Shown piece after piece: positions 2,743-64,000 of a stretch of DNA of 64,000 nt. The translations under genes were made by a program, and so were the position numbers. The DNA is taken from IMG/VR virus record IMGVR_UViG_3300028883_000045; one strand, given 5' to 3'. The stretch is from an uncultured virus (IMG/VR IMGVR_UViG_3300028883_000045). Taxonomy: Duplodnaviria > Heunggongvirae > Uroviricota > Caudoviricetes. The first letter of the stretch is position 1, and every line of letters starts with the position of its first letter. The notes under the pieces are model-generated. The model saw only the letters and a list, made by a program, of their open reading frames with translations. It searched no databases and had not been told where the DNA came from.

Positions 2743-2744
2743 TC

Positions 2745-4646: not shown

Positions 4647-4648
4647 TC

Positions 4649-9661: not shown

Positions 9662-9688
9662 GTCGGTTGCCCAGAAAGGAGGTTGCGG

Positions 9689-11007: not shown

Positions 11008-11628
11008 ATGGCAGGTCGCACCCTCGTTGTTTCCAGTCCGCAGCCGCGGGCGACCCTGAGGCCGCTGAAGCAGCCCAGGTACGACACGGAGAACATCCCG
11101 TCGGCCGGTACGGCCAACACCCTGAACTTCTTCCAGCGTCCGATCGGCCAGGCGTTCGCGAACGCCCCGGTCGGTACCGGGAAGACCCTGGCCGACACCA
11201 ACATGCAGCAGGCCGGCCAGCTGGGCACCCCGACCGAATTCGACGTCTGGGGGTTCAACGTCCGGACGAACGTGACCATCACCCAGGCCGATCACCAGAT
11301 CGCGATGGACCAGGGCGTCTTCACGTTCAACTTCGGTCAGGGCAGGCCCTGGCTGCAGACCCAGCTGCGCGACATCCCCGCCGGCGTCGACAGCCACGGG
11401 TCGATGGCCGTGGACGGTGCCGGGGCTCTGGACGTGCGCCAGATCATCACCAACGGCATGCCGTCGATCAAGGAGCTCTACAGCTTCGCGGTCGGCCGCA
11501 AGCCCGTCCGGATCCGCTCGAACGAGACGTTCGGCGTAACCCTGAACTGGCCGAACGCCGCACCGAACCCCACGGTGTTCGTGCGCCTGACGGTCCTGAT
11601 CCGCGGCATCGAGTACTCGGCGCTCTAA
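11008..11628 (+). CDS. Putative single jelly-roll major capsid protein
   Basis: Strong RBS (AAGGAGA), highly biased codons, beta-strand-rich 206 aa, QPRYDT...TNM...GQL...F motifs, flanked by hairpins; fold inferred. Confidence 0.6.
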   Translation: MAGRTLVVSSPQPRATLRPLKQPRYDTENIPSAGTANTLNFFQRPIGQAFANAPVGTGKTLADTNMQQAGQLGTPTEFDVWGFNVRTNVTITQADHQIAMDQGVFTFNFGQGRPWLQTQLRDIPAGVDSHGSMAVDGAGALDVRQIITNGMPSIKELYSFAVGRKPVRIRSNETFGVTLNWPNAAPNPTVFVRLTVLIRGIEYSAL

Positions 11629-11744: not shown

Positions 11745-12629
11745 ATGGCTATCCCCCTCTTTCTCAAGCAGAAATCCACCGGCGTTGTTTACCTGAACGA
11801 GCTCAAGCGGTTCGTCAAGCCCTACTTCATGGTTCCCCAGAACGTCGGGAACCAGCTGGGGCAGGTCGCAGTGGGCGCGCTGGGAACCGGCAACATGATC
11901 CTCGCCCCGGACCAGAACGGCCCGTTCGAGGGGTTCTACTTCACCTCCGAGCACGGCGGGAACATGCTGGTCAGGATCAACGACGGCGGCGCGCGGCGCG
12001 ACCTCATGAACCGCGACGTCCACATCGACACGATCATGACCCCCGTCCCCGGCGGTCAGCGTCCGTTCATGCTCCCGGAGGGCCTCTGGATCCAGCAGCG
12101 CCGGAGCCTGCTCTTCACGTTCACGGACCTGTCCGGCGCGGCCCAGACGGTCAGACCGGTGCTCCACGGCCGGAAGTTCTTCCTGAAGCAGGCTACCCCG
12201 GGGCTCGCCAGCAAGTTCATTGCCCGGCGGGACATGATCAACCAGGTCACGACCCCCTTCTTCTACACCACCGACAACGACGTCAACCTGCCGCTGGCCA
12301 CGACCGCGAATCAGCAGGAAACCATCACGGTCAATGACGAGGGGCACTTCCTCGCGACCAAGATCACGTGCGTCTCCCAGGGCCCGTTCGACTTCATCAT
12401 CAAGGATGGTCGCACCGGCCAGTCGCTGAGCGGCGCGGTTCGGGTCTCGAACACGGGGTGCACCGGGATTTCCCGCTTCCCGTACGTCTTCCCGGAGCCC
12501 TGGCTGATCGAGCGCAACTCCCAGATCATAATCGAGTTCACCAACCGGTTCGCGCTGGGCTCGAACAACATCTGGATGACCTGGACCGGCCGGCGCATCT
12601 ACGACGAGCAGTACCAGGAAATCCTCTAA
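11745..12629 (+). CDS. Putative second capsid protein with internal duplication (double jelly-roll-like)
   Basis: The two halves align: INDGGARRDLMN/IKDGRTGQSLSG, PFMLPEGLWI..RSLLFTFTD/PYVFPEPWLI..NSQIIIEFTN, LHGRKFF/WTGRRIY. Confidence 0.6.
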   Translation: MAIPLFLKQKSTGVVYLNELKRFVKPYFMVPQNVGNQLGQVAVGALGTGNMILAPDQNGPFEGFYFTSEHGGNMLVRINDGGARRDLMNRDVHIDTIMTPVPGGQRPFMLPEGLWIQQRRSLLFTFTDLSGAAQTVRPVLHGRKFFLKQATPGLASKFIARRDMINQVTTPFFYTTDNDVNLPLATTANQQETITVNDEGHFLATKITCVSQGPFDFIIKDGRTGQSLSGAVRVSNTGCTGISRFPYVFPEPWLIERNSQIIIEFTNRFALGSNNIWMTWTGRRIYDEQYQEIL

Positions 12630-28760: not shown

Positions 28761-28778
28761 GGAAACGGAGGACAACCC

Positions 28779-30050
28779 TTGACCCAGCAAATCAGACTGC
28801 TCGACACCGGCGAGGACGCAGTGAACATCGATCTGCACGTCTCGCTGCCCTATCACCTGCCGTTCGACATGCTGGGCGCCTACTACGACGGCCACATCCA
28901 CCGCCGGCTCGAGACCGTGAACGGGCGTAAGCCCGATCGCGTGGGGCACGAGATCCTCCCGATCACCGGGATGTTCGGGTCATGGGAGAACCTCGAGGGC
29001 TCCTGGTTCGAGCAGGGGGTGCACGTCGGCGCTCATCACTACGACTGCCGCGAGGTCCTCGGGATGCATATGCGGGGGGATCGCGAGCAGGAGTTCGTGA
29101 TCTACGCGGTCGAGAGCGTGAACGGCTGCCGGCCGACCGCGAGCGTGGTCCGCAACTTCACCGATCCGACGAACCTCAAGATCCCCGTCGCTGGCCACAA
29201 CCAGGTGGCCCAGGCCCACAACTGGCGCTCCACTATCTCCCGGAACCTCCCGAAGATCGAGAACAACTGGGGGGACGCCCCGGGCTGCGAGCGCATCATC
29301 TACGTGGGCTCCGGTCCGAGCCTGCGGCGGAACTGGCACGATCTACTCGAGGTAGACCGGACGAAGTGCCAGATCTGGGCCGCAAACGAAGCTTTCAGCT
29401 TCCTCCTGAGCAAGGGGATCGCAGCAGACTGCTTCTTCTGCATCGACGCGACCAGTCCCAAGAGGTGGTGGGACGGGCTCGACTGCTCTGAGACCTGCCT
29501 GGTCGCGGCCCCGTTCGTCACTCCCGAGGTGACCGAGGCGAACTGGAAAGAGGTCTTCTGGTTCAACATCTCGGGGGACGGCGCCTACTACAACATGGTC
29601 CGCAAGCACCATCCGGAGCTGTTCGAGATCGACGCCACCAAGGGCGTTGGATCGAGCATGATCGAAAGCAGCTGGTCCAAGGGCGTGAAACACCTTGCCA
29701 TGCTGGGATGCGACTTCTGCTACGAGAAGATAGACAAAGAGGTCTACCGTTCGGTGTGGCACTCGTGGAGCGAAGAGGAGTGGCAGGAGATCGCCACGAG
29801 GTATGCCCACTACGTGGTCACGACCATGACCGGAGAGACCAGCCTCACCTACATCGGTCTGGCAACGGAATGCGCGGCGGTCTTCGCCGCGGCGCAATGC
29901 CTCAGCGAGAAGGGTGTCCTCGTAACTAACTCATCCGAAGGGGGTTGCCTGTTCGTCAACCCCGCGGCGAAGTACCTGGCCAGCCGGCCGGCGGTCCTGG
30001 AGCACAAACCCCTCAGGGAATGTCTTGACTTTCTCTCCGGGAAAAGCTAG
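28779..30050 (+). CDS. Second Maf/DUF115-family transferase
   Basis: VGSGPSL, WAAN.A, CIDA, MLGCDFCY, VTNSSEGG motifs. Confidence 0.7.
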   Translation: MTQQIRLLDTGEDAVNIDLHVSLPYHLPFDMLGAYYDGHIHRRLETVNGRKPDRVGHEILPITGMFGSWENLEGSWFEQGVHVGAHHYDCREVLGMHMRGDREQEFVIYAVESVNGCRPTASVVRNFTDPTNLKIPVAGHNQVAQAHNWRSTISRNLPKIENNWGDAPGCERIIYVGSGPSLRRNWHDLLEVDRTKCQIWAANEAFSFLLSKGIAADCFFCIDATSPKRWWDGLDCSETCLVAAPFVTPEVTEANWKEVFWFNISGDGAYYNMVRKHHPELFEIDATKGVGSSMIESSWSKGVKHLAMLGCDFCYEKIDKEVYRSVWHSWSEEEWQEIATRYAHYVVTTMTGETSLTYIGLATECAAVFAAAQCLSEKGVLVTNSSEGGCLFVNPAAKYLASRPAVLEHKPLRECLDFLSGKS

Positions 30051-31260: not shown

Positions 31261-31291
31261 GTCTGCGGGCTCAGCGCTTCTTGCTTTTCTT
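31249..31291. terminator. Bidirectional terminator at the convergence of the two arms
   Basis: AAGAAGCGCTGAG/CTCAGCGCTTCTT stem followed by a T-rich tract. Confidence 0.7.
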
Positions 31292-31956
31292 CAAACCCCT
31301 TTGTGGTCCCTGAAGTCCACAAAGAAAATACCGTTCATGTAGATACGCATCCCGATCCACTTGGGCCCTCCCGAACGCAGGCTCAAGGATCCTGTCTCGA
31401 TCTCAACCGAAAACCTTTCTTTGGGCCTCACGCAGATCGGTCTTTGCTCAGTGGTCATGTCGTATATTCTGCGCTCCTGATAATGCTTGGGGAGGCTTTC
31501 GTAGTCTTTGGTTTTGAAGTCGACCACCTCCAGCGATTCCCACAACTGGTCTTCCGGATTGAGGGTCACGCTGGAATACCGCTTCAGGGCGCCCTCCTCC
31601 GGCGCTACGGTGTTGACCGGGATGGCCGACAGGGGAACCCTCACCCACGGCATGTGATCGAAATAGAACACGAATGACGATCTGTAGTAAACCTCCAGCC
31701 ACGCCTCATCCAGTCGCCCATCGGCCGGCTCGACGCTGAAACCCCACAGGTAAAACTGTGTTCTCTCTGGCAGCGATCCCGAAATTGGCATGTTGGTGTC
31801 TACGAAGGTCTTGACCTCCCCCGCATAGTCGCAATCCCCAAAGGGAACTTCAAACCCGCGGGAGAAGCAATCCCCTGATGCCCGGATGAGCACTGTGTCG
31901 TACAGGGGCTGCTTGAGCTGACGGTATAAAGGGGGAAGGTTCTTGGTCTCAGACAT
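31291..31956 (-). CDS. Divergent paralog of putative capsid protein 11008-11628
   Basis: LKQPLYDT vs LKQPRYDT; KTFVDTNM vs KTLADTNM; FYLWGFSV vs FDVWGFNV; MNGIFF vs IRGIEY. Confidence 0.75.
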   Translation of the reverse strand: MSETKNLPPLYRQLKQPLYDTVLIRASGDCFSRGFEVPFGDCDYAGEVKTFVDTNMPISGSLPERTQFYLWGFSVEPADGRLDEAWLEVYYRSSFVFYFDHMPWVRVPLSAIPVNTVAPEEGALKRYSSVTLNPEDQLWESLEVVDFKTKDYESLPKHYQERRIYDMTTEQRPICVRPKERFSVEIETGSLSLRSGGPKWIGMRIYMNGIFFVDFRDHKGV

Positions 31957-31971: not shown

Positions 31972-32964
31972 TCAGATCAGTTTGTTCGAAATCAGCATGT
32001 CCCTGAGCGCTTCCACACTCATAGCTTCTTCCCGAGAGCTGTCCACCCCGCCCACCGGGATCGCGTCCCGGTATCGCGAGTAGTCTCTGGCCCCGAACAT
32101 CATCGGGGGAAGGATCACATAGTTGTCGCCATGCATGAATGCGCGCTCGGATTCTTCTGAAGTAATGATCTTCTCGTGCTGAGTCTCTCCCGGCCGGCGC
32201 CCGACCTGCCGGCGGGGCACGAATTCCAGGTCGTGCCTGCGGCAATACGCGTCGCAGAACACCTTGGCAAGATCCTCGAGTCTCGCGACCGGCATGCGCC
32301 GCACGAAGACCTCGCCCCCGACACCCCGAGAGGCGTCGATCAGCAGCCGGGAGCTTTCCTCCAGGGTGAGCACATACCGGGTCATGGTCGGGTCCGTAAC
32401 GGAGATCGAGCCCGTCGAGCACACCTGGTTCCGCCACAACCGCAAGACCGAACCCCTTGAACCAAGGACGTTTCCGAACCGAATGGAAACGAACCTCGTC
32501 TCCGGGTGGTGGCTGTTGGCCTGGGTGATGAGCTTCTCGGCGGTGAGCTTGGTGGCCCCCATGACGTTGTTGGGCTCGGCCGCCTTGTCGGTCGACGCAA
32601 AGACCACGCTCTCCGCACCGGTATCGATGGCCGCCGAGATGACGTTGCCAGTCCCGCCCACGTTCGTCTTGATGGTCTCTTCGGGATTGTACTCGCAGCT
32701 GTCGACGTGCTTCAGTGCCGCGAGATGGTAGACCGTTCCCACGTCACGGAACGCCCGCCGCAGTCGCGACAGGTCGCGCACGTCGCCGATGAAGAACCTG
32801 TAATTGCAGGGATCAAATCCCTCGGCCTCGAAGCTGGCCCGGAGCTCCAGCTGCTTCGACTGGTCGCGAGAGAGTATGCGTACCAGGTTGCCCCGACGCA
32901 GAAGGTGGCGAGCCAGGTGCGCGCCAATATCTCCAGTGCCGCCGGTGATGAGATTCCAGGTCAC
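31972..32964 (-). CDS. UDP-GlcNAc 4,6-dehydratase (PseB/FlaA1/CapD family)
   Basis: LITGGTG..G, HLAALKHV..CEYNP, STDKA, MGATK, RFGNVLGSRGSV. Confidence 0.9.
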   Translation of the reverse strand: MTWNLITGGTGDIGAHLARHLLRRGNLVRILSRDQSKQLELRASFEAEGFDPCNYRFFIGDVRDLSRLRRAFRDVGTVYHLAALKHVDSCEYNPEETIKTNVGGTGNVISAAIDTGAESVVFASTDKAAEPNNVMGATKLTAEKLITQANSHHPETRFVSIRFGNVLGSRGSVLRLWRNQVCSTGSISVTDPTMTRYVLTLEESSRLLIDASRGVGGEVFVRRMPVARLEDLAKVFCDAYCRRHDLEFVPRRQVGRRPGETQHEKIITSEESERAFMHGDNYVILPPMMFGARDYSRYRDAIPVGGVDSSREEAMSVEALRDMLISNKLI

Positions 32965-42665: not shown

Positions 42666-42962
42666 CTAGGACCTCTTGTTCTCCCTCCCCGGGGAGAGCC
42701 TCGCCCGGAGCTTCCGCCCAGGCCGGAAGGTCACGGTCTTGTGCCGCTTCACCTTCACCGGCTCGCCGGTCCGGGGATTAGTGGAGATCCGTGCCGCGCG
42801 CACGCGCACATCAAAGACCCCGAAGTTCCGCAGTTCGAGGTTGCCGCCCTCGACGATCGCGTTGGACATCTCTTCGAGTATGTCGTTGATCGTGCTCCGT
42901 ACCTGCTTCTGAGACACGTCCCACTTTATTGACAGGGCCCTGATGACGTCCATCTTTATCAT
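42666..42962 (-). CDS. HU/IHF-family DNA-binding protein
   Basis: LELRNFGVF.VR.RAAR...NPRTGE.V.V......FRPG..L. Confidence 0.9.
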   Translation of the reverse strand: MIKMDVIRALSIKWDVSQKQVRSTINDILEEMSNAIVEGGNLELRNFGVFDVRVRAARISTNPRTGEPVKVKRHKTVTFRPGRKLRARLSPGRENKRS

Positions 42963-43180
42963 GTGATTGGCTCCGAATGCGATTCCGACCGCGACCGCGA
43001 CCACGACCGCGACCGCGACCACGAGCACGGCCGCGACCACGACCGCGACCGCGACCGCGACCGCGACCGCAACAACGACCGCGACCGCAACAACGACCCC
43101 GACCACGACCGCGACCGCGACCGCGACCGCGACTGCGGCCACAAATTCACGTATCCCGTGTGCAGCATGCAAGCGTTCAT
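42959..43180 (-). CDS. Ser-Trp/Arg/Gly repeat peptide, copy D (MNACMLHTGY leader)
   Basis: ATGA overlaps at both ends; (SR/SW)n core. Confidence 0.7.
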   Translation of the reverse strand: MNACMLHTGYVNLWPQSRSRSRSRSWSGSLLRSRSLLRSRSRSRSRSWSRPCSWSRSRSWSRSRSESHSEPIT

Positions 43181-43747
43181 GAAATCTCGTCTTCCAGCCT
43201 GCAGATCCTGCCCTTGAAGAGACAGCCTACCGCCACTATGTGTGACATGACCTTCCCGCCGGACTCGGTCTTGAGCAGTCCGACCCGGTCCATCGAGAGG
43301 ATCACCTCCTTGCTGGCGCGAGTGAACGTCGCGTAGTTTTCCCGCAACGAGGCCAGCTTCCTCTGCTTCGGACTCATCACCGGTCCGCTCATTTGCCACC
43401 TCGCTTGACCGCCAGGTACCGGGAAGCCATCACCACGTATCCGCCCGCGGCCGCCTCCATGTCATTGTGCAGTTCGGAAATCTCCAGCTGCAAGTCACTG
43501 ATAATGCAGTTCTTACAGTGCTTTCCCCCCTGCTGGATGATATCCTCCTCCAGTGTTCCGCCGCATTTCGGGCAATGTGGCTCACTCAAAGAGCACCCCC
43601 TGACCTTTGCATTCCCGAAGCTTCGCCTCGAAGCACTTCAGCGGGCGGCACGTCGAACACGCTTCGTTCGGCCACGCCTTGTTGCAGAAATGCTTCTTTG
43701 GTTTCTGCAGGCACCGGTTGTAATGCCTGCACCCCCGACAGCAGTGC

Positions 43748-44782: not shown

Positions 44783-45534
44783 GCGCGCACCTTCTCCGCA
44801 ACCTTCTCGAAGTCCTCCCGGCTGAGGGACCACGGGCCCCCGTCCGGACACTGCCCGCGGAGCTTCTCGTCGTAACAGAAGTGGGCTTCCCACGCGGTGA
44901 CCCCGCGTAACCTCAGCTTCTTTCCAAGATCCTTGCTCGCCTCGAGCCATTCGCGGCCCGGAACATGCGACGAGATCCCCACCTTCCCGGGCAGGCGCCG
45001 GACCATCTGGTCTACTCTGCTGGGATGGTACTTTCTCTTCGGCACCGGGTACTCGGGCACGCAGTACATCCAGGTGATGGGCTGCTTCCCGTAGTAATTC
45101 CCGACGCTCAGCGTCGCGTCCGGCGGGACCGACACGTAGAGCGGCAGATCGCAGGCATCGGATACCTGCCCAAAGGCCTCTGCCAGCTTCGCGTTCTGCC
45201 ACTCCTGACAGGCGGACTTGAGGAACGCCGGGAGCAGGGTCGACATGTGACCCCAAAGATCCAGCACGTGCTTCCAATGAAAGAAGCTTGCTCCGATGCG
45301 GTCGTCCTCGGTCACGCAGTCTATGACATCCTCCCACATCAAGTTCCATCCACTCAGATCCTGGGGCCGGACGTTTCTGCGCGTGGACAAGAGATGAGCG
45401 TCGAAACACTGGACCTTCACGAGGTCCGCCCCGCAGTCCAGCGCCGCCTTGCAGGCGTCCCGAAGCGACGTCGGGTCGTCGTATCGCCAACAGGTCCCGA
45501 TCTCCGCGATCACCGTAATCTCGCTACCGCCCAT
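44779..45534 (-). CDS. NeuB/PseI-like nonulosonate synthase (short, divergent)
   Basis: VIAEIG, GADLVKVQ, MYCV.EYP.P, VGISSH, EAHF; no C-terminal SAF domain. Confidence 0.7.
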   Translation of the reverse strand: MGGSEITVIAEIGTCWRYDDPTSLRDACKAALDCGADLVKVQCFDAHLLSTRRNVRPQDLSGWNLMWEDVIDCVTEDDRIGASFFHWKHVLDLWGHMSTLLPAFLKSACQEWQNAKLAEAFGQVSDACDLPLYVSVPPDATLSVGNYYGKQPITWMYCVPEYPVPKRKYHPSRVDQMVRRLPGKVGISSHVPGREWLEASKDLGKKLRLRGVTAWEAHFCYDEKLRGQCPDGGPWSLSREDFEKVAEKVRA

Positions 45535-46433
45535 ACCGTCCTCCCGATGTGGGTCCACCCGCTCATCCCACTGGTCCACCAGAACTCCTGAAGCTCCGCG
45601 CGGCGCTCGTTCAGTCGGGCGCGCGCCTTCTCGTCCCGAGAGTAGTCCTCCCCGTGCAGCCTGAAGAGTTCGACCGGGTAGGTGGTCCGCATGTAGCACA
45701 CCTGCAGGCCGCAGCGATTGAGCAGGTTCTCGAGGCTCTTGGGGTTGAAGTAGTTGATGTGGTCCGGAGTGCTGACCCACCAGTTCCTTTCGCCGGCACA
45801 CAGGAACGCCTGCTCCTGGATGGGGTTAAAGTCCCACGGAACTTCGACCAACAGGAACGTAGTACCCGTGTTGCGATAATCCCTCATGTACATCTTGCAC
45901 TTCGACAGAACGTCGAACGGGTTCCTGGCATGCTCGAGCACGAACCCCAGGTTGATCACGTCGAATTGCGCGCCCTCGTAGCAACTGCTCAGGCCATCAC
46001 GGCCGAACTCCTCCCACGAGGGGAAGATGTGAATGCGATCTTGGTGAACCGCCTGCTCCAGGCTGGGCTCGATGCCGACCACGTCGAACTCCGGGTGCAC
46101 CAGGCCCTTCTCGATGGCGTATCTCAGCCAGACCGGATCGCGACCGCACCCCACGTCCAGCAACTTGCGGTTCTGTGCAGTTCTGTTGCGACCCATGGTC
46201 ATCCACTGCTCGAAGTATACATTCTCCCAGTATTTATCGATAGTATGATGCTCTGCCGAGTAATCCGGCTTCTCGTCTCCGAAGTACTTCTCCTTGTAGT
46301 ATTCGGCCAGCTCCTCTTCGGTGGGCCGGGGATCGACGTGCGCAAACCCGCAAGAGATGCAGTTTGTGATCCGCGTCTCCCGCCCGCGAACACAGGTGCC
46401 CTCGAAGATCGACGGTCCGGTACAGATGCTCAT
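45510..46433 (-). CDS. Class I SAM methyltransferase with N-terminal Cys motif
   Basis: LLDVGCG, VLEH, LLVEVP, PDHINYF. Confidence 0.85.
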   Translation of the reverse strand: MSICTGPSIFEGTCVRGRETRITNCISCGFAHVDPRPTEEELAEYYKEKYFGDEKPDYSAEHHTIDKYWENVYFEQWMTMGRNRTAQNRKLLDVGCGRDPVWLRYAIEKGLVHPEFDVVGIEPSLEQAVHQDRIHIFPSWEEFGRDGLSSCYEGAQFDVINLGFVLEHARNPFDVLSKCKMYMRDYRNTGTTFLLVEVPWDFNPIQEQAFLCAGERNWWVSTPDHINYFNPKSLENLLNRCGLQVCYMRTTYPVELFRLHGEDYSRDEKARARLNERRAELQEFWWTSGMSGWTHIGRTVWAVARLR

Positions 46434-47395
46434 CTCTCAGGCTCCTTGAAGATGTATTCTATGTAACTGATCGCCCTCGTTCCCGTGGCGATGGGGTCTC
46501 CCGTCGGGTGCCGATCCTCGCCGAGAATCATGTTGGCCAGCCTCCTGACCGAGTCCAGGCCGGCACGGATGCTCAGCGGTGTCCCGCCTCCGAATCGCAG
46601 GTTGATATCCGTGAGCCACGCCTTGCCGTCGCCGTCAACAATGAACTGCATGTTGACCGGGCCGAAGAGGTCCAGCAGCGCATCGACCTCCATCAACGAC
46701 TCTATGACAGGCTCGGGCATCGGAACCACCTCGCCGCAGTCCATCTGCCCCTCGGACACGGAGATCCTCCGGCGGCAACAGGAGCTGACTCTCGATCCGC
46801 TTGCCGGGTAGAACAGGTCTACCGTGTACTCGCATCCACTGAGCCAGGGCTGAACGATCAGATCCGCATGTTCGATGGCCATGGCCCCCAGTTCGCGAGG
46901 GGTGTGTACCTTCTGAGCCACGCGCGAGCCCGCCCCCTGGCGCTCTTTCGCGAAGAGCGGAAAGTCATGGCCCAGGCTGGCCCACTCCGACACCGGAACG
47001 GTGCGCGGCGCCAGCCCCTGCAGCTGCTTGCTCATGAGCAGCTTGTCCCGGGCTATTCGTATCGTCCTCGCCGGACTCAGGATCAGCGGAACCCCCATCG
47101 TCTCGAACTGACCGCGCATCGCGTTCAGCCAGTCCATGTCGCCGTCGCGAACGGGGAGAACCGCGTCTATGGGAATGCGCCGGCACGTGTCGGTCATCCA
47201 GCCGACGTACTGCGAGAAGTCCATGCCTCGCGGTTGCTCGACGAACCGCCCCTGTGCAGCCAGACAGCAGGAAGCCGTGTGCGCCGGCGCGAACCCACAA
47301 GGGTAAACCCGAAAGCACTGCTCCAGCTGGCGCATGAGCGCCACCTTGCGGCCGGCGCTGGGCATCAGTAGTCGGGGGCGGTCGTCAGTATTCAC
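46430..47395 (-). CDS. ATP-grasp protein (glycan-cluster type)
   Basis: SAGRKV.L, DKL, FPLFAK...G.GS, EYTVD, D/EIN.RFGGG. Confidence 0.8.
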   Translation of the reverse strand: MNTDDRPRLLMPSAGRKVALMRQLEQCFRVYPCGFAPAHTASCCLAAQGRFVEQPRGMDFSQYVGWMTDTCRRIPIDAVLPVRDGDMDWLNAMRGQFETMGVPLILSPARTIRIARDKLLMSKQLQGLAPRTVPVSEWASLGHDFPLFAKERQGAGSRVAQKVHTPRELGAMAIEHADLIVQPWLSGCEYTVDLFYPASGSRVSSCCRRRISVSEGQMDCGEVVPMPEPVIESLMEVDALLDLFGPVNMQFIVDGDGKAWLTDINLRFGGGTPLSIRAGLDSVRRLANMILGEDRHPTGDPIATGTRAISYIEYIFKEPER

Positions 47396-48402
47396 GTCGT
47401 CACCTTCGCTACCAGCTTGTAGCCTTTGAGGGCGTTCAGGATCTCGCGCGGGAGAATGCAAGTTTCGCGCGGCGGGTCGGCAGAAAAAGGATCTCTCATG
47501 TCGATCCAGTTCTGCAGCTCCCGCGAGAAAGAGACAATGCTGTTGAACTCTATCCTGGCGCCGGGCAGCTCCCGGCGAATCGCGTACGACAGCGTCTCGG
47601 CGTTGAACATGCTGAGGTGCCCCATGCCGAACATGGGACAGGCCTCGTGCATCACCCTGGCGGCCAGCGCATCGATGTTGGGAACACAGATCAGCATCGT
47701 GCCGCCGGGCTTGAGGTGGGCGACCAGCCTTCGCATCAAGGACAGGGGCTCGAACACGTGCTCGAGGGTTTCCCAGCAGCAGACCAGATCGTATTCTCGA
47801 ACAGCGTTGTCAGGAACCCCGTTGGCGCCGAACGTCCCGAGCACCCTCTCTGCTGCTATCTTGCGAGCGTCGTCGTTGATTTCGACCCCGACAGTCTGTG
47901 ATGTATATATCGGGCCGCGCTTGGGGTCGGTTATTTCGGACGCGGCCTGGAGTAGGGTTCCCGTCGAACACCCCCAGTCCAGGATCCGGGAATTCTCTTC
48001 GGGCGTCTTGCCGATCCGCGGGGGCCAGCCCGCCCACTCCAGGGCCCACCGGAACTTGAGCTTGTCGATGTGCATTTCGATGCTGTTCTGTTGAGTATGC
48101 TGGACCCAGTCCTGAGGTGCGCCGCCCGACTTGTAGTACTCGTTCAAAGCCTTCTCGCTGGGGGGTTGCGGCTGATAGACCATCCCGCACGTCGAGCACT
48201 TTACGTACAACCACCCGTCGCGACTGCGAAAGAGCGAGCGAGCAGCGCGCTTGTCACACAGTGGACACGGCCGCGGGTTGGTCAGAACTGCGTTCTTGGA
48301 GGACGGACGATCTTTCGACCAGAGCTTGTTGCGCCCGGTAATCTCCGCGAAGGTCTTCGGGCCGAAGGTCCATCCGGCGTCGAACTCAAGCCTGCTTATC
48401 AT
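47392..48402 (-). CDS. Class I SAM methyltransferase with Zn-ribbon
   Basis: CPLC...CSTCG; ILDWGCSTG; TLEHV; LKPGG. Confidence 0.85.
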   Translation of the reverse strand: MISRLEFDAGWTFGPKTFAEITGRNKLWSKDRPSSKNAVLTNPRPCPLCDKRAARSLFRSRDGWLYVKCSTCGMVYQPQPPSEKALNEYYKSGGAPQDWVQHTQQNSIEMHIDKLKFRWALEWAGWPPRIGKTPEENSRILDWGCSTGTLLQAASEITDPKRGPIYTSQTVGVEINDDARKIAAERVLGTFGANGVPDNAVREYDLVCCWETLEHVFEPLSLMRRLVAHLKPGGTMLICVPNIDALAARVMHEACPMFGMGHLSMFNAETLSYAIRRELPGARIEFNSIVSFSRELQNWIDMRDPFSADPPRETCILPREILNALKGYKLVAKVTT

Positions 48403-48408
48403 TACCGA

Positions 48409-48600
48409 TTATCCTTTTTTTGGTTTGATTGATCGCGAGAGAAACCACGACCACGCCCCCGACCGCGACCGCGACCCCGACCGCGACCACGACTGCGACC
48501 ACGGCCATGACCCCGGCCTCGACAGCAACCATGACCGCGACTGCGACCACGACCACGAACGCGAATTCACGTACCCCGTGTGTAGCATGCAGGCGTTCAT
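48409..48600 (-). CDS. Ser-Trp/Arg/Gly repeat peptide, copy C
   Basis: MNACMLHTGYVNSRSWSWSQSRSW...; ATGA overlap. Confidence 0.7.
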   Translation of the reverse strand: MNACMLHTGYVNSRSWSWSQSRSWLLSRPGSWPWSQSWSRSGSRSRSGAWSWFLSRSIKPKKG

Positions 48601-48746
48601 AAGAGCACCAATGAGACCGAGTTTGGCCTTGAGCCCGACCACGACCGCGACCACGACCGCGACCACGAGCACGACCACGACCGCGACCACGAGCACGACC
48701 ACGAACGCGAATTCACGTACCCCGTGTGTAGCATGCAGGCGTTCAT
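48597..48746 (-). CDS. Ser-Trp/Arg/Gly repeat peptide, copy B
   Basis: MNACMLHTGYVNSRSWSCSWSRSWSC...; ATGA overlap. Confidence 0.7.
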   Translation of the reverse strand: MNACMLHTGYVNSRSWSCSWSRSWSCSWSRSWSRSWSGSRPNSVSLVLL

Positions 48747-48904
48747 GAGGTTGACCTCGAGTGCGAATACGAATACACCCACGAATGCAGCCATGACCCC
48801 GACCACGACCCCGACCACGACCCCGACCACGACCCCGACCACGACCCCGACCACGACCGCGAATCCGACGTATTCAGTCCCTCTCGCATCATGCAGGCGT
48901 TCAT
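48743..48904 (-). CDS. Ser-Trp/Gly repeat peptide, copy A (absent from ORF track)
   Basis: Hand translation: MNACMMREGLNTSDSR(SWSG)5SWLHSWVYSYSHSRSTS; AGGAGG RBS. Confidence 0.7.
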   Translation of the reverse strand: MNACMMREGLNTSDSRSWSGSWSGSWSGSWSGSWSGSWLHSWVYSYSHSRSTS

Positions 48905-48962
48905 GAAGCATCCCTCCTGTCCGCCCCGGGGGCATTTGCCCCCGGGGCCGCAGGACCAGCCG

Positions 48963-49223
48963 TTACTTCTGCTGCGTCGGCAGGTCGTGGTTCCAGATGG
49001 TCGCGTCCACGATCGCGCCGCGGTTCACGAGCACGGGCCCAGTGAAGGGCTCGACCTCCGACATCTCGCCGTTTGCCAGCGCGTCGTGGAACCGCCCCGT
49101 GTCCGCAACCCAGCTGGCGTTCTCGAGGACGATCTCCTTGTCGTTCACGGATACGAGCTCGCCCACCTGATAGTGCGTCACGCAACGCACCAAGTACTTC
49201 TGCCCTACCTTCCAGAATTCCAT
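48963..49223 (-). CDS. Small beta-barrel (Sm-like/DUF6948-like) protein
   Basis: AGGAGG RBS; VGQKYLVR.VTHY..G.L......I.L..ASWVADTGRF; fold inferred. Confidence 0.55.
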   Translation of the reverse strand: MEFWKVGQKYLVRCVTHYQVGELVSVNDKEIVLENASWVADTGRFHDALANGEMSEVEPFTGPVLVNRGAIVDATIWNHDLPTQQK

Positions 49224-49252
49224 GACTCTCCTCCTCTTGTTTTCAAAAGCAA

Positions 49253-49966
49253 TCACAACCAGGCCAGAACTTTTCTGGCCAACTCCAGGTCGTTACTGTC
49301 GTGCACTTCGATCGCGCCCTTGTCCGGCACCGGAACGATCCGGGAGCCGAGCCACGCAAAGGCGTCGTCTCGATCGCAGGTCATGAGCACCTCGGTGCGC
49401 ACAACCGCGCAGCTACCGGTAGCGATGAACCTCTCGTCGAAGTCCTGCATGCGGTAATTCCGCCCGATCCTGCAGCGCACCAGCGCCCCGGACCGGTCCT
49501 TGACCCACATCCACTCCGGGATGCAACAGATCGGCCGGACGGTCATGCTGGACGTGGCCTCGTCATCACGCTGCAGGGCCCGTATGCACCTGTTGATGGT
49601 TTTCGACGTGATCGTCGGGACGTTGCCGGGTATGCAGGCCACGTATTTGAACTTGCGGATGCTGCCCGCAATCTGCCGTACGACCTCCTGCATCGGCCTG
49701 TGGATACTGGCCGAATCGGTAGCTGTCTCCGGACTCCGCTCGACCAGCTGTATCCGATGCTTCCAGGACTCCTCCCGGGCCAGCGCTTTGACGAACCGGC
49801 TGTCGGTCGACACCGCGACCTCAGATGCCATGGAACCCGTGGCGGCCCCGAACGCGTACTCGATCATGGGGTTCCGACCCACGTACTGAGAATGTTTGTT
49901 GCACAGGCGCTTGCTCCCGGCCCGCGCGCAGATGATCGCAAGAGTGCTCAAATCAGACTTCCCCAC
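49253..49966 (-). CDS. Acylneuraminate cytidylyltransferase (NeuA/PseF family)
   Basis: IICARAGSKRL.NK, VSTDS, IEV....DLE. Confidence 0.85.
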   Translation of the reverse strand: MGKSDLSTLAIICARAGSKRLCNKHSQYVGRNPMIEYAFGAATGSMASEVAVSTDSRFVKALAREESWKHRIQLVERSPETATDSASIHRPMQEVVRQIAGSIRKFKYVACIPGNVPTITSKTINRCIRALQRDDEATSSMTVRPICCIPEWMWVKDRSGALVRCRIGRNYRMQDFDERFIATGSCAVVRTEVLMTCDRDDAFAWLGSRIVPVPDKGAIEVHDSNDLELARKVLAWL

Positions 49967-51273
49967 TTTGCTGTCTCGCGCACAATTCTCGCGCGCGCTT
50001 CCTGCAGCCAGTATCCGCTCTGATTGGTCAGGTTCGCATACGGCCTCTCCCTGAAATCCCCCAGCGCGCGCACGTAGGCCAGCTCGTCTCCGATCCGGCC
50101 CGTCTCGACCGCTGTATCGTAGAGCGGAGTGCCCGGCAACGGGGTGGTGAAGAACACCACCTCAGGCCTGGTCTTCGTGCGCCGGCACAGTTCTATGCTC
50201 TCCTGTATGCTCTCGTCATCCTCGACGGGAGACCCTACCATCATGCTGTAGTCAGCTCCTCCGAACACCTCCTTACACGTATTGATCGCCTTCTCGTTCT
50301 GTTCGACCGTGGTCCGCTTGTTGTAGCTGTCGAGCACCTTCTGGCTGCCGGACTCGATGCCGAGTCCCACCAGGACACAGCCAGCCTCTTGCATGGCGAG
50401 CAGCAGGTCCGGGCTGCAGTGGTTCGCGCGCGCGGCGCAACCCCACGTGCAGTCTACCAGGTACGTATGTCCCATAATGCCGGCGCACAGTTCGCGCATC
50501 CAGTCGGCATCGGCCGTCGATAGATCGTCGGCCGCGTGGAAATACCGGACCCCGTACCGCTGCCACAGGATCTCCATCTCGTGGATGATGTCCGCGGGGG
50601 TGCGCTTGCGGTACTTCAGTCCCATCTGGCAGTGGCTGCAGAACGCGCATGCGTAAGGGCAACCCCGGGCCCAGACCAGGTTCATGCTGCGGGGCACCGG
50701 ATCACCGCCGGGTATCCCGCCGGACCACTTGTTGCGGTTGACCGCGCCCACCGGATTGCGGGTGTAGGCCTCCATGTTGAACGCCGACCAGAGGGGCAGG
50801 AGCTCGGAGTTCAGAGGCCCGGCCTTCAGCTGCATCCAGATCGGGGACCTGTCCGGCCGATCGAGGTCCCCGTTTTGGAGCGTCTCGGCGAACAGCGGCT
50901 CGGACTCCCCCTGCCAGACATCAACCCCGAGCCACTCGTGCAGCCTGCCGCCCAACACCGAGATCGGGCCGCCCACTATGACCGGGGCATCGGCCCGGAC
51001 GTCCCGGACCCAGCCCACGATCTCCTCGACCCTCGAGAACTGCGTCACGATCGCGCTGATGCCCACGTGCGTGAACCCGCCCGTCCCGAACTTCGAACGG
51101 ACGGTGTTCTCGATGTCAGGATGCCCGTAACGGGTAACGTTGAGGTCGAGCACCTCGCAGGGGACCCCCGCCTCCCGCAGCGCGGCCGCCGTGTAGGCCA
51201 GGCCCAGCGGCAGGTTCGCCGGCAGGGCCTCTTCGCGTATGGGCGGGTGGATAAGGAGGATTTTCATGATCAT
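49948..51273 (-). CDS. B12-binding radical SAM protein
   Basis: PLGLAY.AA.L; VGG; RGCPYACAFC; GIESGSQ. Confidence 0.9.
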   Translation of the reverse strand: MIMKILLIHPPIREEALPANLPLGLAYTAAALREAGVPCEVLDLNVTRYGHPDIENTVRSKFGTGGFTHVGISAIVTQFSRVEEIVGWVRDVRADAPVIVGGPISVLGGRLHEWLGVDVWQGESEPLFAETLQNGDLDRPDRSPIWMQLKAGPLNSELLPLWSAFNMEAYTRNPVGAVNRNKWSGGIPGGDPVPRSMNLVWARGCPYACAFCSHCQMGLKYRKRTPADIIHEMEILWQRYGVRYFHAADDLSTADADWMRELCAGIMGHTYLVDCTWGCAARANHCSPDLLLAMQEAGCVLVGLGIESGSQKVLDSYNKRTTVEQNEKAINTCKEVFGGADYSMMVGSPVEDDESIQESIELCRRTKTRPEVVFFTTPLPGTPLYDTAVETGRIGDELAYVRALGDFRERPYANLTNQSGYWLQEARARIVRETAKWGSLI

Positions 51274-51302
51274 TCCTCTGGATACGAATTGGGAGGGGGC
51301 GG

Positions 51303-51563
51303 CTACTTCCTCAACCACAGCGCCAGTGCGGTCGCCAGGATGAACATGCTCGCCACCGCGATCCCCGCCGCCTTGATGAGCGGGTGAACGGGGACCGCCT
51401 CGATCAGAGACCATGTCACCCCCACCACGGCGGTGACCAGCAGCAGAGCCGAAAACACGATGGTCACGCAGCCCATGCTGGTGATCCAGATGCTCAGGAA
51501 TGGTTCTGATCTGCTGGGCTCTGGTCCCACATCCGTCTCCTTCGCCGCTCGGCGTTCTTCCAC
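51303..51563 (-). CDS. Two-TM membrane protein
   Basis: Two hydrophobic segments. Confidence 0.45.
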   Translation of the reverse strand: MEERRAAKETDVGPEPSRSEPFLSIWITSMGCVTIVFSALLLVTAVVGVTWSLIEAVPVHPLIKAAGIAVASMFILATALALWLRK

Positions 51564-51841
51564 ATCGCGTCGATGATATTCGCGAGGCAGTCCCGGTCGC
51601 AGAAGTCGAACCTCTCCTCCATCCAGGCCACCGGCACCACGTCACCGGGCTCGTGGTCCGGATTGGGACTGCCGTCCTCCAGCAGCGGCGGCGTCCTGGT
51701 GCAGCTGATCACCACCGCCAGGAAATCCCGCTTGGGGTTCTTCGGGTGCGGGCCCAGGGCCGCCCTGATGTTGTAGCCGGCGTGCAGGCTCCCACACGCG
51801 TCGCAGATCCGCTCCGCTCCGTACCTAGTAGCGTCGTTCAT
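51494..51841 (-). CDS. Cys-containing hypothetical protein
   Basis: CDAC...FC...C; ATGA overlap. Confidence 0.5.
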   Translation of the reverse strand: MNDATRYGAERICDACGSLHAGYNIRAALGPHPKNPKRDFLAVVISCTRTPPLLEDGSPNPDHEPGDVVPVAWMEERFDFCDRDCLANIIDAMWKNAERRRRRMWDQSPADQNHS

Positions 51842-57666: not shown

Positions 57667-58506
57667 TTAAAAGGGGATTTCCTCCTCGTCGGCCTTGGGC
57701 TGGGGCTGGGCTGCCGGCCGGTTCGCAGCGGGCTGCGAGCTGGTCTGGACGTGGCTGTAATCCTCCTGCTGCGCGAAGCCCTTGGAGTACTGCGAGATGA
57801 GCTCCTTGAGCTTGAGCTGGTCCTCGCGCGGCAGGCGCTGGCGGGGATCGGCCTTCATGATCAGCCTGCTGTAGACCTCCTTGGGGTTCTTGGCGATCTT
57901 CTCGAGGCTGAAGTGCGTGATCACGGTCTGGTACGGAATGCCCTTGCCCGTGAGGTCCGTGAAGAACGCATCCTTCTCGCCGAGGCTGGTGGGCGGCATG
58001 CTCATGCGATACGGGACGGCCGACATCATGTCGCCCTCGATGGCCAGCACGAACAGCGTGTGGCCCTCCTTGCAGGCCTTGCCGCGGCCCCCCTTCAGGT
58101 CCGAACCCCAGGCGTTCATCGGGCAGGCGTCGCAGAAGAGCGCCTGTCCGTAGCGCTTCTCGCACTCGCGGCGCATCTGGGGCGGCATCGGGCACTTCTC
58201 GGGATAGTCGGGGGATGCCCAGTAGCCGTTGTCGCTCTTGCAGTCGGGGCGGTTCCCGGTCGCATCGGGGTTTTCCCAGTAGGCGCGGTTCCCGTGGTGA
58301 TGCAGGATCACGCCCCGGAAGTTCTGGACCGGCAGGTCCCCCGGGAACATGAAGATGCCGTCCTTGCTCATCTTCACGTCGGGAATCTTGGCGGTGACCC
58401 CCTCCATGTTCTCGGTCACGGCGAACACCTCGTCCTCGGACGTGGCGCCGAAGTTGGTGATCAGTTCGGGCAGCAGGCTCTCGTACTTCTGGATTTCGTT
58501 CGTCAC
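57667..58506 (-). CDS. Putative ssDNA-binding protein
   Basis: Replication cluster; acidic tail DEEEIPF; CDACP.N.WGS...GKAC motif. Confidence 0.65.
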   Translation of the reverse strand: MTNEIQKYESLLPELITNFGATSEDEVFAVTENMEGVTAKIPDVKMSKDGIFMFPGDLPVQNFRGVILHHHGNRAYWENPDATGNRPDCKSDNGYWASPDYPEKCPMPPQMRRECEKRYGQALFCDACPMNAWGSDLKGGRGKACKEGHTLFVLAIEGDMMSAVPYRMSMPPTSLGEKDAFFTDLTGKGIPYQTVITHFSLEKIAKNPKEVYSRLIMKADPRQRLPREDQLKLKELISQYSKGFAQQEDYSHVQTSSQPAANRPAAQPQPKADEEEIPF

Positions 58507-59995: not shown

Positions 59996-61396
59996 CTACG
60001 TCGCGGTCTTGAGGTATTCGAGGGCCGCATGAGACATGGTTTCCTTTCGGTTAAGAGCCCGGTAGATAGTTTCGTCGATGCTGTTTTCGGCCAGCAGGGA
60101 GACATAGGTACACTTGTTCGTGGTGCCGATCCGGTGGATCCGGTCCTGACTCTGCTTCCAGTGCTCCAGGTTGTAGCTGAGCGAGTAGTAGACGCAGTAG
60201 GAACAGTTGGTCCAGGTCACCCCGTGCGCGATGGTCGCGGGGTGGGCCACCACGTACTGGACCTCCCCCTGCGAGAACTTCCTGATGTTCTCCTGCAGCT
60301 CCTTCGGGTTCATCCCGCCGATGATCTTGAGGGCTCCGAGCCGGTGGGCCAGCTGCTGCGCGTCGTGCCGGAACTGGACCCAGATGATCGCCTGCTGGTT
60401 GCCGATCTCCTCGAGGACTTCGTCCAGCAGCTCAGCCTTGCTCTGGTCGAAAACGTAATGGTTCTTGAGGGTGTCGTAGGTCCACCCGGAGGTCAATTGC
60501 CGGAGCTTCATGATTTCCGCCAGGGTGTTCGACCCGATCGCCTCGCGGTCCTCGACGAGCGGCAGGATCTTGTCCTTGACCATCGTGTCATAGGCATCCC
60601 GCAGGGGCTTGGGCATTACGTACTTGCGGGTCACGAAGACCTTCTCCGGCAGGTCGAGGCAGTCCTTCTTGGCCAGGAACGTGGCGTGAGGCTTGACGAG
60701 GTTCATGATCTCTTCTTCGGCCCCCGCGCGCGGGCGGTAGTCGAACTTGTGTCCCTGCCGGTTCTGGCCGTGGGCGATGAACCACCGGCCGCGGTACTGC
60801 CAGAAGTCCACCCCCAGGATCCCCGGCTTCACTACGTCCACCTGGTTGAACAGGTCCAGGTAGCCGTTCGGCATCACGGTGCCGCTCATGGGGTAGACGT
60901 ACGGGATGGAGCGCGCGAACTTCACGATCACGCGCGCGGTTTTCACCTGGTTCTTGATCCGGGTGGACTCGTCCAGGATCAGGTTGTCGAAGTCCTGCTC
61001 ATTCAGCCACCTCTCGATCAGCTTGAAGCTCTCGTAGTTGATGAGACAGACGTCCGCGTCCGCGGCCGCCTCGCACTTCTTCCTGCGCGCAGCCGCGTTG
61101 CGGCCCCACAAGTTGGAGACCTTGAGCTCCGGGCAGAACTTCTGCGCGTCGGACATCCAGGCCGCCTCCAGAAGAGGCAGCGGCGCGACCACCAGCGTCT
61201 TTCCGGAGCGCGTGGGGTTGGCTGCCCGGCGCTCGGCGATGGCCAGGCCCGCATAGGTCTTGCCTGTCCCGCACTCGGCCCCGACCAGATGGCTCGCGGG
61301 GAGCATCCGGTCGAACAGGACCTTCTGGTGCTGGTACGGGGGGAACTTCAAGCTTACCCGCCTGCCTTCGGCACCGGCAGCTTGCCGGCCCCCCAC
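59996..61396 (-). CDS. SNF2-family helicase
   Basis: GTGKT, LILDES, MSGT, KLRQL, Q..DRIHRIG; true start probably slightly downstream. Confidence 0.9.
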   Translation of the reverse strand: MGGRQAAGAEGRRVSLKFPPYQHQKVLFDRMLPASHLVGAECGTGKTYAGLAIAERRAANPTRSGKTLVVAPLPLLEAAWMSDAQKFCPELKVSNLWGRNAAARRKKCEAAADADVCLINYESFKLIERWLNEQDFDNLILDESTRIKNQVKTARVIVKFARSIPYVYPMSGTVMPNGYLDLFNQVDVVKPGILGVDFWQYRGRWFIAHGQNRQGHKFDYRPRAGAEEEIMNLVKPHATFLAKKDCLDLPEKVFVTRKYVMPKPLRDAYDTMVKDKILPLVEDREAIGSNTLAEIMKLRQLTSGWTYDTLKNHYVFDQSKAELLDEVLEEIGNQQAIIWVQFRHDAQQLAHRLGALKIIGGMNPKELQENIRKFSQGEVQYVVAHPATIAHGVTWTNCSYCVYYSLSYNLEHWKQSQDRIHRIGTTNKCTYVSLLAENSIDETIYRALNRKETMSHAALEYLKTAT

Positions 61397-62453: not shown

Positions 62454-62665
62454 GTGTCACCTCCCTTGTGATAGCTTACGGTGAACTTGCCGTTCTGTTT
62501 GTTGTACCTGACGATCTTGCTGATTTGCGCGCCGTCGATGTCGACGCACATCCGGACGATCTTCCCGGGTTTGTTCTTGAGGCCCTCCCGAAGCGCCATT
62601 TTTAGAGACTGCATCACGGTCATGATCGATTTTGCGATCAGCCGCTCCCGTTCCTCAGGCGACAT
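62450..62665 (-). CDS. Hypothetical protein
   Basis: Operon packing. Confidence 0.5.
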   Translation of the reverse strand: MSPEERERLIAKSIMTVMQSLKMALREGLKNKPGKIVRMCVDIDGAQISKIVRYNKQNGKFTVSYHKGGDT

Positions 62666-63329
62666 CCACCGTTACTTTCGTGCTGAACGCTCGCGCGAGC
62701 TCTCGCGCCCGATCCCCGGACCACTTCTCGAACATCTTCGAGCCCAGAACCTGGGCGTCGAGCATGCTGTTCCAGTTGACCACCCGCAGCGTGTTGTCGC
62801 GAAGGCTCACGATCAGCCCGAGAGCGCGGCGCAGGTAGATCCAGTTCTCCAGCGCGTCCAGGTCGCCTTCCTCTATCGGGTCGTGGAAGATGAAGGTCGC
62901 GATCTGGAGCGGCGGGTTGCGCTGGAAGACCTCGCCGCGCAGCAGCGCGTCCACGGACATGACCTCTTCCAGGTTGCGCCGGTGATCGATCACGCGGATG
63001 CGTTCCCCGCGGTCGGCAAGGCCGGTGCTCCTTATGGCCTCGTCGATGCGGAAGAGCGCATCGTCGGTCATGCGCCACACGTCGAAGGTCGGCGACATGC
63101 CCGGCGCCCTTCGGAACCGGATCCAGCCGCGAACCAGCGCGCGCTTGATCAGGCGCTCCCGGTTCATTGCTGGGCCCTTCGGGCCGGCGGCCCGCTCTTC
63201 GGGCGTGAACATGATGTCCTCGATGGTCAGCCCGAACACGTCGGGGTGCTTCTTCATGTAGTTCAGGTGCTCGTAGATCTCGATGGCCTCGCCCGTTGGC
63301 GACAGCCAGTATCCGGTTCCCTGGGGCAC
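62655..63329 (-). CDS. GYW..P.G-domain protein with QRNP linker
   Basis: N-terminal domain resembles the N-terminus of 25494-26453; AGGAGG RBS. Confidence 0.6.
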   Translation of the reverse strand: MPQGTGYWLSPTGEAIEIYEHLNYMKKHPDVFGLTIEDIMFTPEERAAGPKGPAMNRERLIKRALVRGWIRFRRAPGMSPTFDVWRMTDDALFRIDEAIRSTGLADRGERIRVIDHRRNLEEVMSVDALLRGEVFQRNPPLQIATFIFHDPIEEGDLDALENWIYLRRALGLIVSLRDNTLRVVNWNSMLDAQVLGSKMFEKWSGDRARELARAFSTKVTVDVA

Positions 63330-63591: not shown

Positions 63592-63832
63592 TGGAGGGCA
63601 ACACAATTATGGGCTTCATTGATATCCCGGCCCTCCAGAAAAGCTGAAGGGGGCACAGCGGTCCTGGGCTTCAGTGTATCTATGGCCCCCTTCTCAAAAT
63701 CAACGGGATGGGCAACGCACTCTTGGGCTTCATCGGTGTTCTGGCCCACCCCAAAAACATCTCCCTCAAGACGCGGCTTCGGAGGAACGAGCAGGGATCC
63801 CTTGGTGCTCACAGTAGTCTTGGCTCTTCCTC
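63592..63832 (-). ncRNA. TIGR-like stem-loop guide RNA array, 4 units
   Basis: Each unit is stem-C(A/G)-9 nt variable-TGA(AGC/GCA)CCA-9 nt variable-T-stem; units at 63782-63832, 63705-63752, 63646-63693, 63592-63637. Confidence 0.8.
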
Positions 63833-64000
63833 GCTTCCACCCACAGTTCTCTCAGGAGCCTCTTGGCCACGTAACGGTGCGCCCGCTTGTGGGCGTGGCC
63901 GTTTGTGATCTCCGGGTTCTTTTCCTTCTCGTAGGCCTTGCGTTCATCGTACAAAGCCTTGTACTCCGGATTGCCGCATCGGAGAGCTCCGACGTCCACA
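63766..64000 (-). CDS. C-terminus of a Nop-domain/IS110-related protein (Tas-like); 5' end outside the window
   Basis: Y...YD.RKAYE.......GHAHKRAHRYVAKRLLRELW resembles the C-terminal helices of IS110/Nop-domain proteins; array overlaps its 3' end. Confidence 0.65.
   Translation of the reverse strand, partial: VDVGALRCGNPEYKALYDERKAYEKEKNPEITNGHAHKRAHRYVAKRLLRELWVEARKSQDYCEHQGIPARSSEAAS

Follow-up and report, generated by a model that had tools for sequence, protein, structure and literature searches.

Introduction

At one end of a 64,000-nucleotide stretch of DNA from an uncultured virus (IMG/VR record IMGVR_UViG_3300028883_000045; the whole stretch is called the window here), four short stem-loops meet the tail of a gene that runs off the edge. 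What does this locus do, to which DNA, and does its protein act alone? TIGR systems are described as generally single-protein, with one ParB-like exception (available text of PMC12045711 and 10.64898/2026.09.09.750476). Their stem-loop arrays are processed to single units, and the two spacers of a unit pair with opposite DNA strands in tandem, with no PAM (PMC12045711, available text). The nuclease-less MbTasA represses in E. coli without any partner (10.64898/2026.09.09.750476, available text). Spacer acquisition, the maturation of stem-loop guides and natural targets are named as open questions in the available text of PMC12045711 and 10.64898/2026.09.09.750476, where no adaptation protein is associated with these systems. 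The available portions of 10.64898/2026.07.30.739390, PMC12385481 and 10.64898/2026.09.22.753630 were also drawn on.

Stem-Loop Units at the Edge of the Window

A first-pass annotation had placed four units between 63592 and 64000 on the minus strand. They are present as placed: four dual-spacer stem-loop units occupy 63592-63832 (minus strand), overlapping and then following the tail of a Nop-domain gene. The features at this end of the window are as follows.

63766..64000 (-): 3' end of tasA (last 77 codons and the stop; C-terminal Nop helices; full length 284 aa); the gene runs past the window edge
63782..63832 (-): tigRNA unit 1, in the last codons of tasA; spacer A 63820-63812, loop 63811-63803, spacer B 63802-63794; interrupted stem; spacers the same in variant L006
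63704..63753 (-): tigRNA unit 2, stem type A; spacer A 63741-63733, spacer B 63723-63715
63646..63693 (-): tigRNA unit 3, stem type B; spacer A 63682-63674, spacer B 63664-63656
63592..63637 (-): tigRNA unit 4, terminal stem type C; spacer A 63627-63619, spacer B 63609-63601; spacers identical in L006
63574..63600 (-): array end, 27 nt, containing AAGGAG, which resembles a ribosome-binding site; past the window edge another copy stands before the start codon of tasA, and the layout is similar in L006
63381..63566 (-): gene of 61 aa that follows the array; its product has two Cys pairs ahead of a helical tail and belongs to no family; first gene of the replication-side block, with the first 168 nt of the gene identical in L006

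All four units share one anatomy, CC(A/G)-9 nt-TG-4 nt-CCA-9 nt-TG, and each has its own closing stem. The motif CC(A/G)-N9-TG-N4-CCA-N9-TG occurs exactly four times in the whole window, always within the same 240 nt, while 200 dinucleotide shuffles gave a mean of 0.32 and a maximum of 3. When a stem of at least 7 bp is added to the motif, three window units qualify (8-10 bp) against none in the 200 shuffles. The eight spacers are each 9 nt long and no two are alike, as had been annotated. The claims of a conserved 9-nt loop and of differing stems that still pair hold for units 2-4 and need a small correction for unit 1, whose loop is changed at 3 of 9 positions relative to the others and whose stem is interrupted. 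The stems are variable and palindromic and stand in for edge repeats, that of unit 1 being weak; against shuffles, unit 1 folds no better than chance (z -0.74), and units 2, 3 and 4 give z of -2.25, -4.70 and -2.01. The position of a unit inside the coding tail is not unusual and has precedent in the intragenic stem-loop units reported in the available text of 10.64898/2026.09.09.750476. The word CTT lies near three of the four stem bases and is too short to carry weight. Rfam returned no match, and the exact array DNA was not found in the viral and metagenome contigs.

A Tas Protein Without a Nuclease

The reading frame at 63766-63999 is open at the window edge, and its translation is identical to the last 77 aa of a 284-aa protein, P0006. 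P0006 was reached by a search for longer relatives, which led to P0001, of which it is a cluster mate. The window stops short of the first 207 codons of tasA, which were assigned through P0006 and the variant locus L006. Contigs from runs X1 and X2, which like the other runs used here are marine sediment metagenomes, extend 1,667 nt beyond the edge; 625 letters separate the end of an upstream array from the edge, which leaves room for the missing 207 codons.

The model of P0006 is all-helical (pLDDT 93). Its first helix begins at residue 12, and the 11 residues before it leave no space for an N-terminal nuclease. All eight Foldseek matches at E<=0.001 are TasR or TasH chains. A wider structure search gave TasR 9MTY first (Z 16.6, rmsd 2.7, 188 aligned), then TasH (Z 15.8, 200 residues), an IS110 recombinase (Z 13.2) and unrelated helical bundles at about 8. 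Profile searches agree, with 9MTY at E 6e-20 and TasH at E 8e-10; the NCBIfam model TIGR_Tas_endo matches at E 1e-16 with 61.6 bits, under its cut-off of 100 bits. By profiles, model and structure search the protein consists of a coiled coil and a Nop domain, and RuvC, HNH and DEDD domains are all absent from the structure model and the profile matches. Stem-loop TIGR-TasA systems are marked by the lack of a C-terminal Y/H processing loop and by CUU at the stem bases; here unit 1 encodes the tail that comes after the last helix, and P0002 lacks this tail.

The window protein is therefore a nuclease-less TasA of the stem-loop TIGR type, which bears out the earlier assignment to a Nop/IS110-like gene of TIGR-Tas kind and settles the content of the full reading frame: a Nop fold without RuvC or HNH, and no canonical DEDD IS110 transposase. 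By analogy with its relatives, TasA is most likely an RNA-guided DNA-binding repressor and not a cutter. The original proposal of a programmable DNA-targeting system is thus supported as far as binding and probable repression are concerned, and cutting drops out of it since TasA itself has no nuclease domain.

History of the Arrays

The variant locus L006 encodes a TasA that is 95% identical, in an intact frame. It has 14 units (13 found by script and one with a shifted stem): seven upstream, one in codons 1-16, one in the last codons and five downstream. On the contig of the window, too, there is an array upstream of tasA, closed by the same 27-nt end. Further units, which the annotation had proposed to look for, thus exist before the gene and within its first codons. 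Two stem types alternate in blocks of 130-131 nt and a third type closes each array. The linker of the second upstream block repeats the last codons of the gene that precedes the array, which shows duplication. Downstream of tasA the window has one block and L006 has two.

Differences between blocks and between strains fall in the spacers. When L006 blocks are compared with one another, spacers differ at 15/36, 20/36 and 21/36 positions, as against 2/95, 8/95 and 3/79 non-spacer positions (Fisher p<1e-7 each). Units 1 and 4 have the same spacers in the window and in L006. In unit 2 the two loci disagree at 2 of 18 spacer positions and at none of 30 in the frame, whereas unit 3 and the L006 units of its type disagree at 10-16 of 18 spacer positions and at 0-3 of 30 in the frame. 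Over the shared tasA tail 9 of 234 nt are changed, and over the gene that follows 0 of 168. Of the 20 differences listed for run X3 at 63601-63685, 19 lie within spacers (eight more fall outside the listing), and they arise from that strain's upstream array being aligned to the downstream one. A single Thermoguttaceae MAG contains two copies of a locus, between which 69 of 90 spacer positions and 10 of 241 others are changed. High spacer difference beside low frame difference, in L006 and in this MAG, means that spacers are altered in place. Homologous loci thus vary in their spacers while boxes and stems are kept. At the level of sequence, these comparisons show an array that grows by duplication of two-unit (131-nt) blocks and spacers that then change in place inside a fixed frame. 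The route may be templated replacement or point mutation under selection.

Graded relatives of this kind are rare. Only 5 of 824 within-array pairs (58 arrays) differ at 6 or fewer of 18 positions, and four of the five are in L006; overall, spacers of same-stem units are weakly closer to each other than to those of other units (p 0.0495). At least two units lie near tas in 27 of 54 metagenome loci, and units are dense there, with 128 in 131 kb, but sparse elsewhere, with 2 in 561 kb. By the strict motif, 64 of 141 tas loci have no unit, though several have CGA-box units by eye. Loci L019, L026, L045, L171 and L175 have, by eye, stem-loop units near tas with a CGA-type box in place of CCA, which suggests a box-variant subclade. 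In L004/L005 a distant relative of Tas has a long dual-repeat TIGR array behind it, at about 4360-4900, and the partner gene described below is absent.

A Conserved Gene Upstream of tasA

In L006 an open reading frame of about 170 aa lies directly before the upstream array. The corresponding gene of the window virus is outside the window and was assigned through L006 and P0201, a protein 97% identical to the L006 one. An iterated profile found homologs in 113 of 142 tas loci. Among loci with at least 1.5 kb upstream the count is 94 of 102, and after clustering of TasA it is 83 of 91 clusters at 90% identity and 49 of 56 at 60%. With the profile of alignment A4, 112 of 113 matches lie upstream of tasA on the same strand and one lies downstream; there is none elsewhere in 2.02 Mb. 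No match was found in 28 loci outside the tas set, two of them with dual-repeat arrays. This profile was built from the same tas loci, hence a reverse test was made in genomes. Among 401 genomes of one order, four matched besides the centre, and three of these four have tas directly downstream; among 401 genomes of another phylum the centre alone matched (8 candidates scored per genome). Both genes are present in the isolate phage RHph_X2_25, where they are annotated as hypothetical.

Searches of Pfam (best single-member E 0.001), PHROGs and PDB sequences place the partner in no family. None of 68 members matches ParB families at E 0.01, the partner shows no similarity to the TasA profile, and no invariant polar residues point to a catalytic site. 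A fused TasA-partner form was not seen among about 160 TasA proteins. Pairwise identity within the partner family has a median of 18%, and it reaches 50% in 1.3% of pairs. According to the available text of PMC12045711, neighbouring genes were sought there by 50% clustering, which a family of such low identity would escape. No description of the partner was found in the article texts of the TIGR literature that were available; it may be drawn in figures S4, S13 or S14 of PMC12045711 or in bioRxiv supplements. From gene order only, the partner is probably a functional second component of the module.

Search for Targets

The annotation had proposed that spacer A, joined to spacer B in reverse complement, be searched against the genome, other viruses and candidate hosts. 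No target above chance was found in the window, in three distant capsid-related viruses, in pooled loci or in scans of a viral collection. Five target geometries in the window gave none at 3 or fewer mismatches; the self-target search covered 64 kb of a 76-kb contig. Sixteen units searched against three capsid-related viruses gave 3 matches at 3 mismatches (1.75 +/- 1.26 expected) and 14 at 4 mismatches (13.7 expected). For 290 units against 1.95 Mb of pooled loci, the real pairing gave 552 near-matches, while two wrong geometries gave 539 and 513, and four re-pairings gave 584-654; matches with silent differences only numbered 74 against 54-93.

Scans of the viral collection covered unit 2, unit 4 and the upstream A-type units of L006. 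Unit 4 matched 11 loci, which are AT-rich and unrelated to the window virus, unit 2 matched none, and the L006 units gave one match, outside any long frame. We considered whether related spacers might follow one coding target through its silent variants; the difference positions have no common codon phase, and the idea was rejected as unsupported. One of the upstream units of L006 translates to D-E-D-I-P-F and agrees, apart from 3 silent differences, with the C-terminal end of a small ORF in a capsid-related virus. An exact scan for it found three contigs, one of them at a C-terminus, and the match is a lead only. An acidic tip ending in IPF is typical of ssDNA-binding proteins. The window protein at 57667-58506 (minus strand, 279 aa), which has such a tip and falls in a PHROG of unknown function, is presumably an ssDNA-binding or annealing protein.

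The Virus and Its Probable Capsid Genes

Two genes of the window bear on the kind of virus that carries the module.

11008..11628 (+): 206-aa jelly-roll protein, probable small major capsid protein; model pLDDT 78; SPV1 Z 8.1, HHIV-2 Z 7.6; atlas leads to P2/P3 capsid families (0.75-0.77)
11745..12629 (+): 294-aa protein, probable second capsid protein; tblastn matches to L152/L155 and L162; role judged from the position of its homologs

Tailless single-jelly-roll (Singelaviria-like) viruses have one or two vertical single-jelly-roll major capsid proteins and an FtsK-HerA-type packaging ATPase, and they lack a terminase, a portal and an HK97 capsid. The best fold match of the first is SPV1, at a middling Z of 8.1 (rmsd 3.8, 135 aligned), and Foldseek gave no match at E<=0.001. 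Homologs of the 294-aa protein come after the small capsid gene in two related viruses. Among the 81 window proteins no large terminase, portal or capsid family was found in PHROGs, and a Walker A scan of the window found the primase-helicase alone. This suggests, as far as the fold model goes, that the window virus may be a large tailless single-jelly-roll virus. The annotation had named a putative tailless virus and an unusual context: the first part now has moderate support from the jelly roll, and the second stands in that none of 50 TasA viral records examined, out of 80 fetched, has this capsid (control 3/3), while 16 of the 50 match one terminase family. The small-capsid profile had no match in the genome contigs. 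None of three viruses with the same capsid carries tas, so the module looks acquired. A literature search found no paper on a TIGR or Nop system in a tailless virus; 'tailless' and 'jelly' do not occur in the main text of PMC12045711, and the supplementary files available gave no match for the locus, the tail peptide or realm names.

Several other features of the genome were observed. A diverged paralog of the small capsid gene (31291-31956, minus strand; 26% identity, E 5e-14) sits at the far end of the other gene block, and the related virus G053 likewise has two copies far apart. Words of the form R/K/E-N-P are repeated in basic or unknown proteins at 2580-5428, 9683-10891, 24604-25497 and 62655-63329, five of them in a 688-aa protein, and occur in the related virus L152 too; they are possibly a packaging or cleavage signal of the virus group. 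The proteins at 62655-63329 (-) and 25494-26453 (+) have in common a short N-terminal GYW..P.GE motif (E 3e-6); the latter contains a RadC-like JAB domain and is preceded by a kinase-like gene. Glycan and modification genes lie at 27332-30050 (+), 31972-32964 (-) and 45510-51645 (-) and comprise two MptE-like genes, a sugar epimerase, a cytidylyltransferase, an ATP-grasp protein, two methyltransferases and a B12 radical SAM protein. SurE, GroES and PAPS reductase are encoded elsewhere in the window. Low-complexity short repeats at 42666-43214 translate to poly-(Asp-Arg/His) from the plus strand and to poly-(Val-Ala) from the minus strand. At about 61350-61364, a gene junction, some contigs of runs X2 and X3 have 522 other letters, a strain insertion polymorphism.

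Proposed Mechanism

We consider it likely that the locus is a two-gene stem-loop TIGR-TasA module in which guide-directed TasA binds and represses foreign DNA without cutting it. The order would be the partner gene, the upstream array, tasA itself, whose first codons contain one unit and whose last codons contain another, and the downstream array. On the pattern of PlTasA and BlTasA, the arrays would be transcribed and cut in their linkers into single stem-loop guides of about 46-51 nt. As in the rest of the family, a TasA dimer would sit on each guide at the two C/D-like boxes, spacers A and B would pair with opposite DNA strands, and the site would be 18 bp long with no PAM. The target would consist of spacer A and then spacer B in reverse complement, a layout derived from the 3' overhangs given in the available text of PMC12045711. 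Because TasA has no nuclease, it would block transcription or replication at the site, as MbTasA does, instead of cleaving it. Targets would most likely lie outside the virus's own genome, in competing viruses first and host genes second. Two-unit blocks duplicate, and their spacers are then altered within the fixed frame, as the sequence comparisons show.

A bolder proposal, which we put forward as speculative and on the whole unlikely, is that the stem-loop TasA of this clade form two-protein systems whose upstream protein writes new spacers into the fixed frame or matures the guides. The present lineage would then display block duplication followed by rewriting in steps of 2 to 16 of 18 positions.

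Alternative Explanations

It can be asked instead whether TasA is only the aiming half, with the partner bringing an effector activity beyond passive repression, such as help with recombination, a block of replication or contact with RNA polymerase. The near-universal presence and fixed position of the partner fit this, and partner and TasA pairwise identities correlate (rho 0.49, reached in 0 of 499 permutations), a correlation that shared descent alone could yield; the available text of PMC12045711 also speculates on an aid to recombination and reports tasParB operons. We nevertheless find an effector partner distinctly unlikely, given that MbTasA represses in E. coli without one (10.64898/2026.09.09.750476, available text), that the partner has neither catalytic-looking invariant polar residues nor a Pfam, PHROGs or PDB family, and that fusions are lacking among the TasA proteins surveyed.

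Guides that regulate the virus's own genes, as a built-in transcription switch in place of an attack on foreign DNA, are highly improbable. The module does head the replication-side gene block, both arrays end in a ribosome-binding-site-like motif, and units 1 and 4 stay unchanged between strains. Against the 64 kb, however, 18 units gave no match at 3 or fewer mismatches where 2.07 were expected (gaps 0-2) and 6 at 4 mismatches where 8.2 were expected, and fast spacer change suits an arms race better than fixed self-regulation. That the locus is a decayed IS110/IS1111 transposon with duplicated bridge-RNA-like hairpins, devoid of guide function today, has scarcely any probability left and has already been largely refuted. 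Its weak matches are the IS110 model NF033542 at 19.6 bits (cut-off 140), a PHROG 'transposase' at E 3e-11 and the structural Z of 13.2. There is no DEDD domain, however, the family extends to 2,333 clusters of relatives at 50% identity, which among those listed align over the Nop core with variable N-termini, and the frame is intact in the 95%-identical variant, with boxes and stems kept as spacers change. The preferred reading remains a module that binds and represses foreign DNA under guide direction.

Relation to Known Systems and Significance

The closest systems are PlTasA (PMC12045711; 10.64898/2026.08.11.744272) and BlTasA and MbTasA (10.64898/2026.09.09.750476). According to the available texts, these too have a Nop-only protein with a coiled coil, CCA and UG boxes that bound two spacers of 9 nt each, a 9-nt loop, variable palindromic stems, and units upstream of, downstream of and inside the gene. 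Unlike in those texts, a conserved partner of about 170 aa is encoded upstream here, with two-unit block duplications, related spacers, a very short N-terminus and a carrier with a probable jelly-roll capsid. TasR (TaTasR, PDB 9MTY) and TasH (SpTasH, PDB 9W04/21KL) share the coiled coil and the C-terminal Nop domain, whereas the window TasA has no RuvC or HNH and its guides are stem-loop and not dual-repeat. The tasParB-TasA operons in the available text of PMC12045711 likewise have a second gene beside tasA, but with dual-repeat arrays and a ParB-like partner, in contrast to stem-loop arrays and a partner that matches a ParB family in 0 of 68 members. The IS110/IS621 bridge recombinases resemble the module in a Nop-like RNA-binding domain and C/D-like boxed guide segments; they differ in having a DEDD recombinase domain and one two-loop bridge RNA instead of many arrayed single-stem units.

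Stem-loop TIGR-TasA is hence a kind of system already published, and the partner gene and the array history are new. A partner upstream of tasA in about nine of ten loci is a concrete candidate for the questions named as open, and the strain pair with graded spacer differences is a record of array change that may help to explain how new guides arise. Even if the partner merely modulates repression, it changes the design of TasA tools. With 284 aa and a guide of about 50 nt, and with no PAM, the module would by analogy be a very compact programmable DNA binder. A jelly-roll carrier would widen the hosts of TIGR systems past the tailed phages, archaeal viruses and CPR bacteria named in the main text of PMC12045711.
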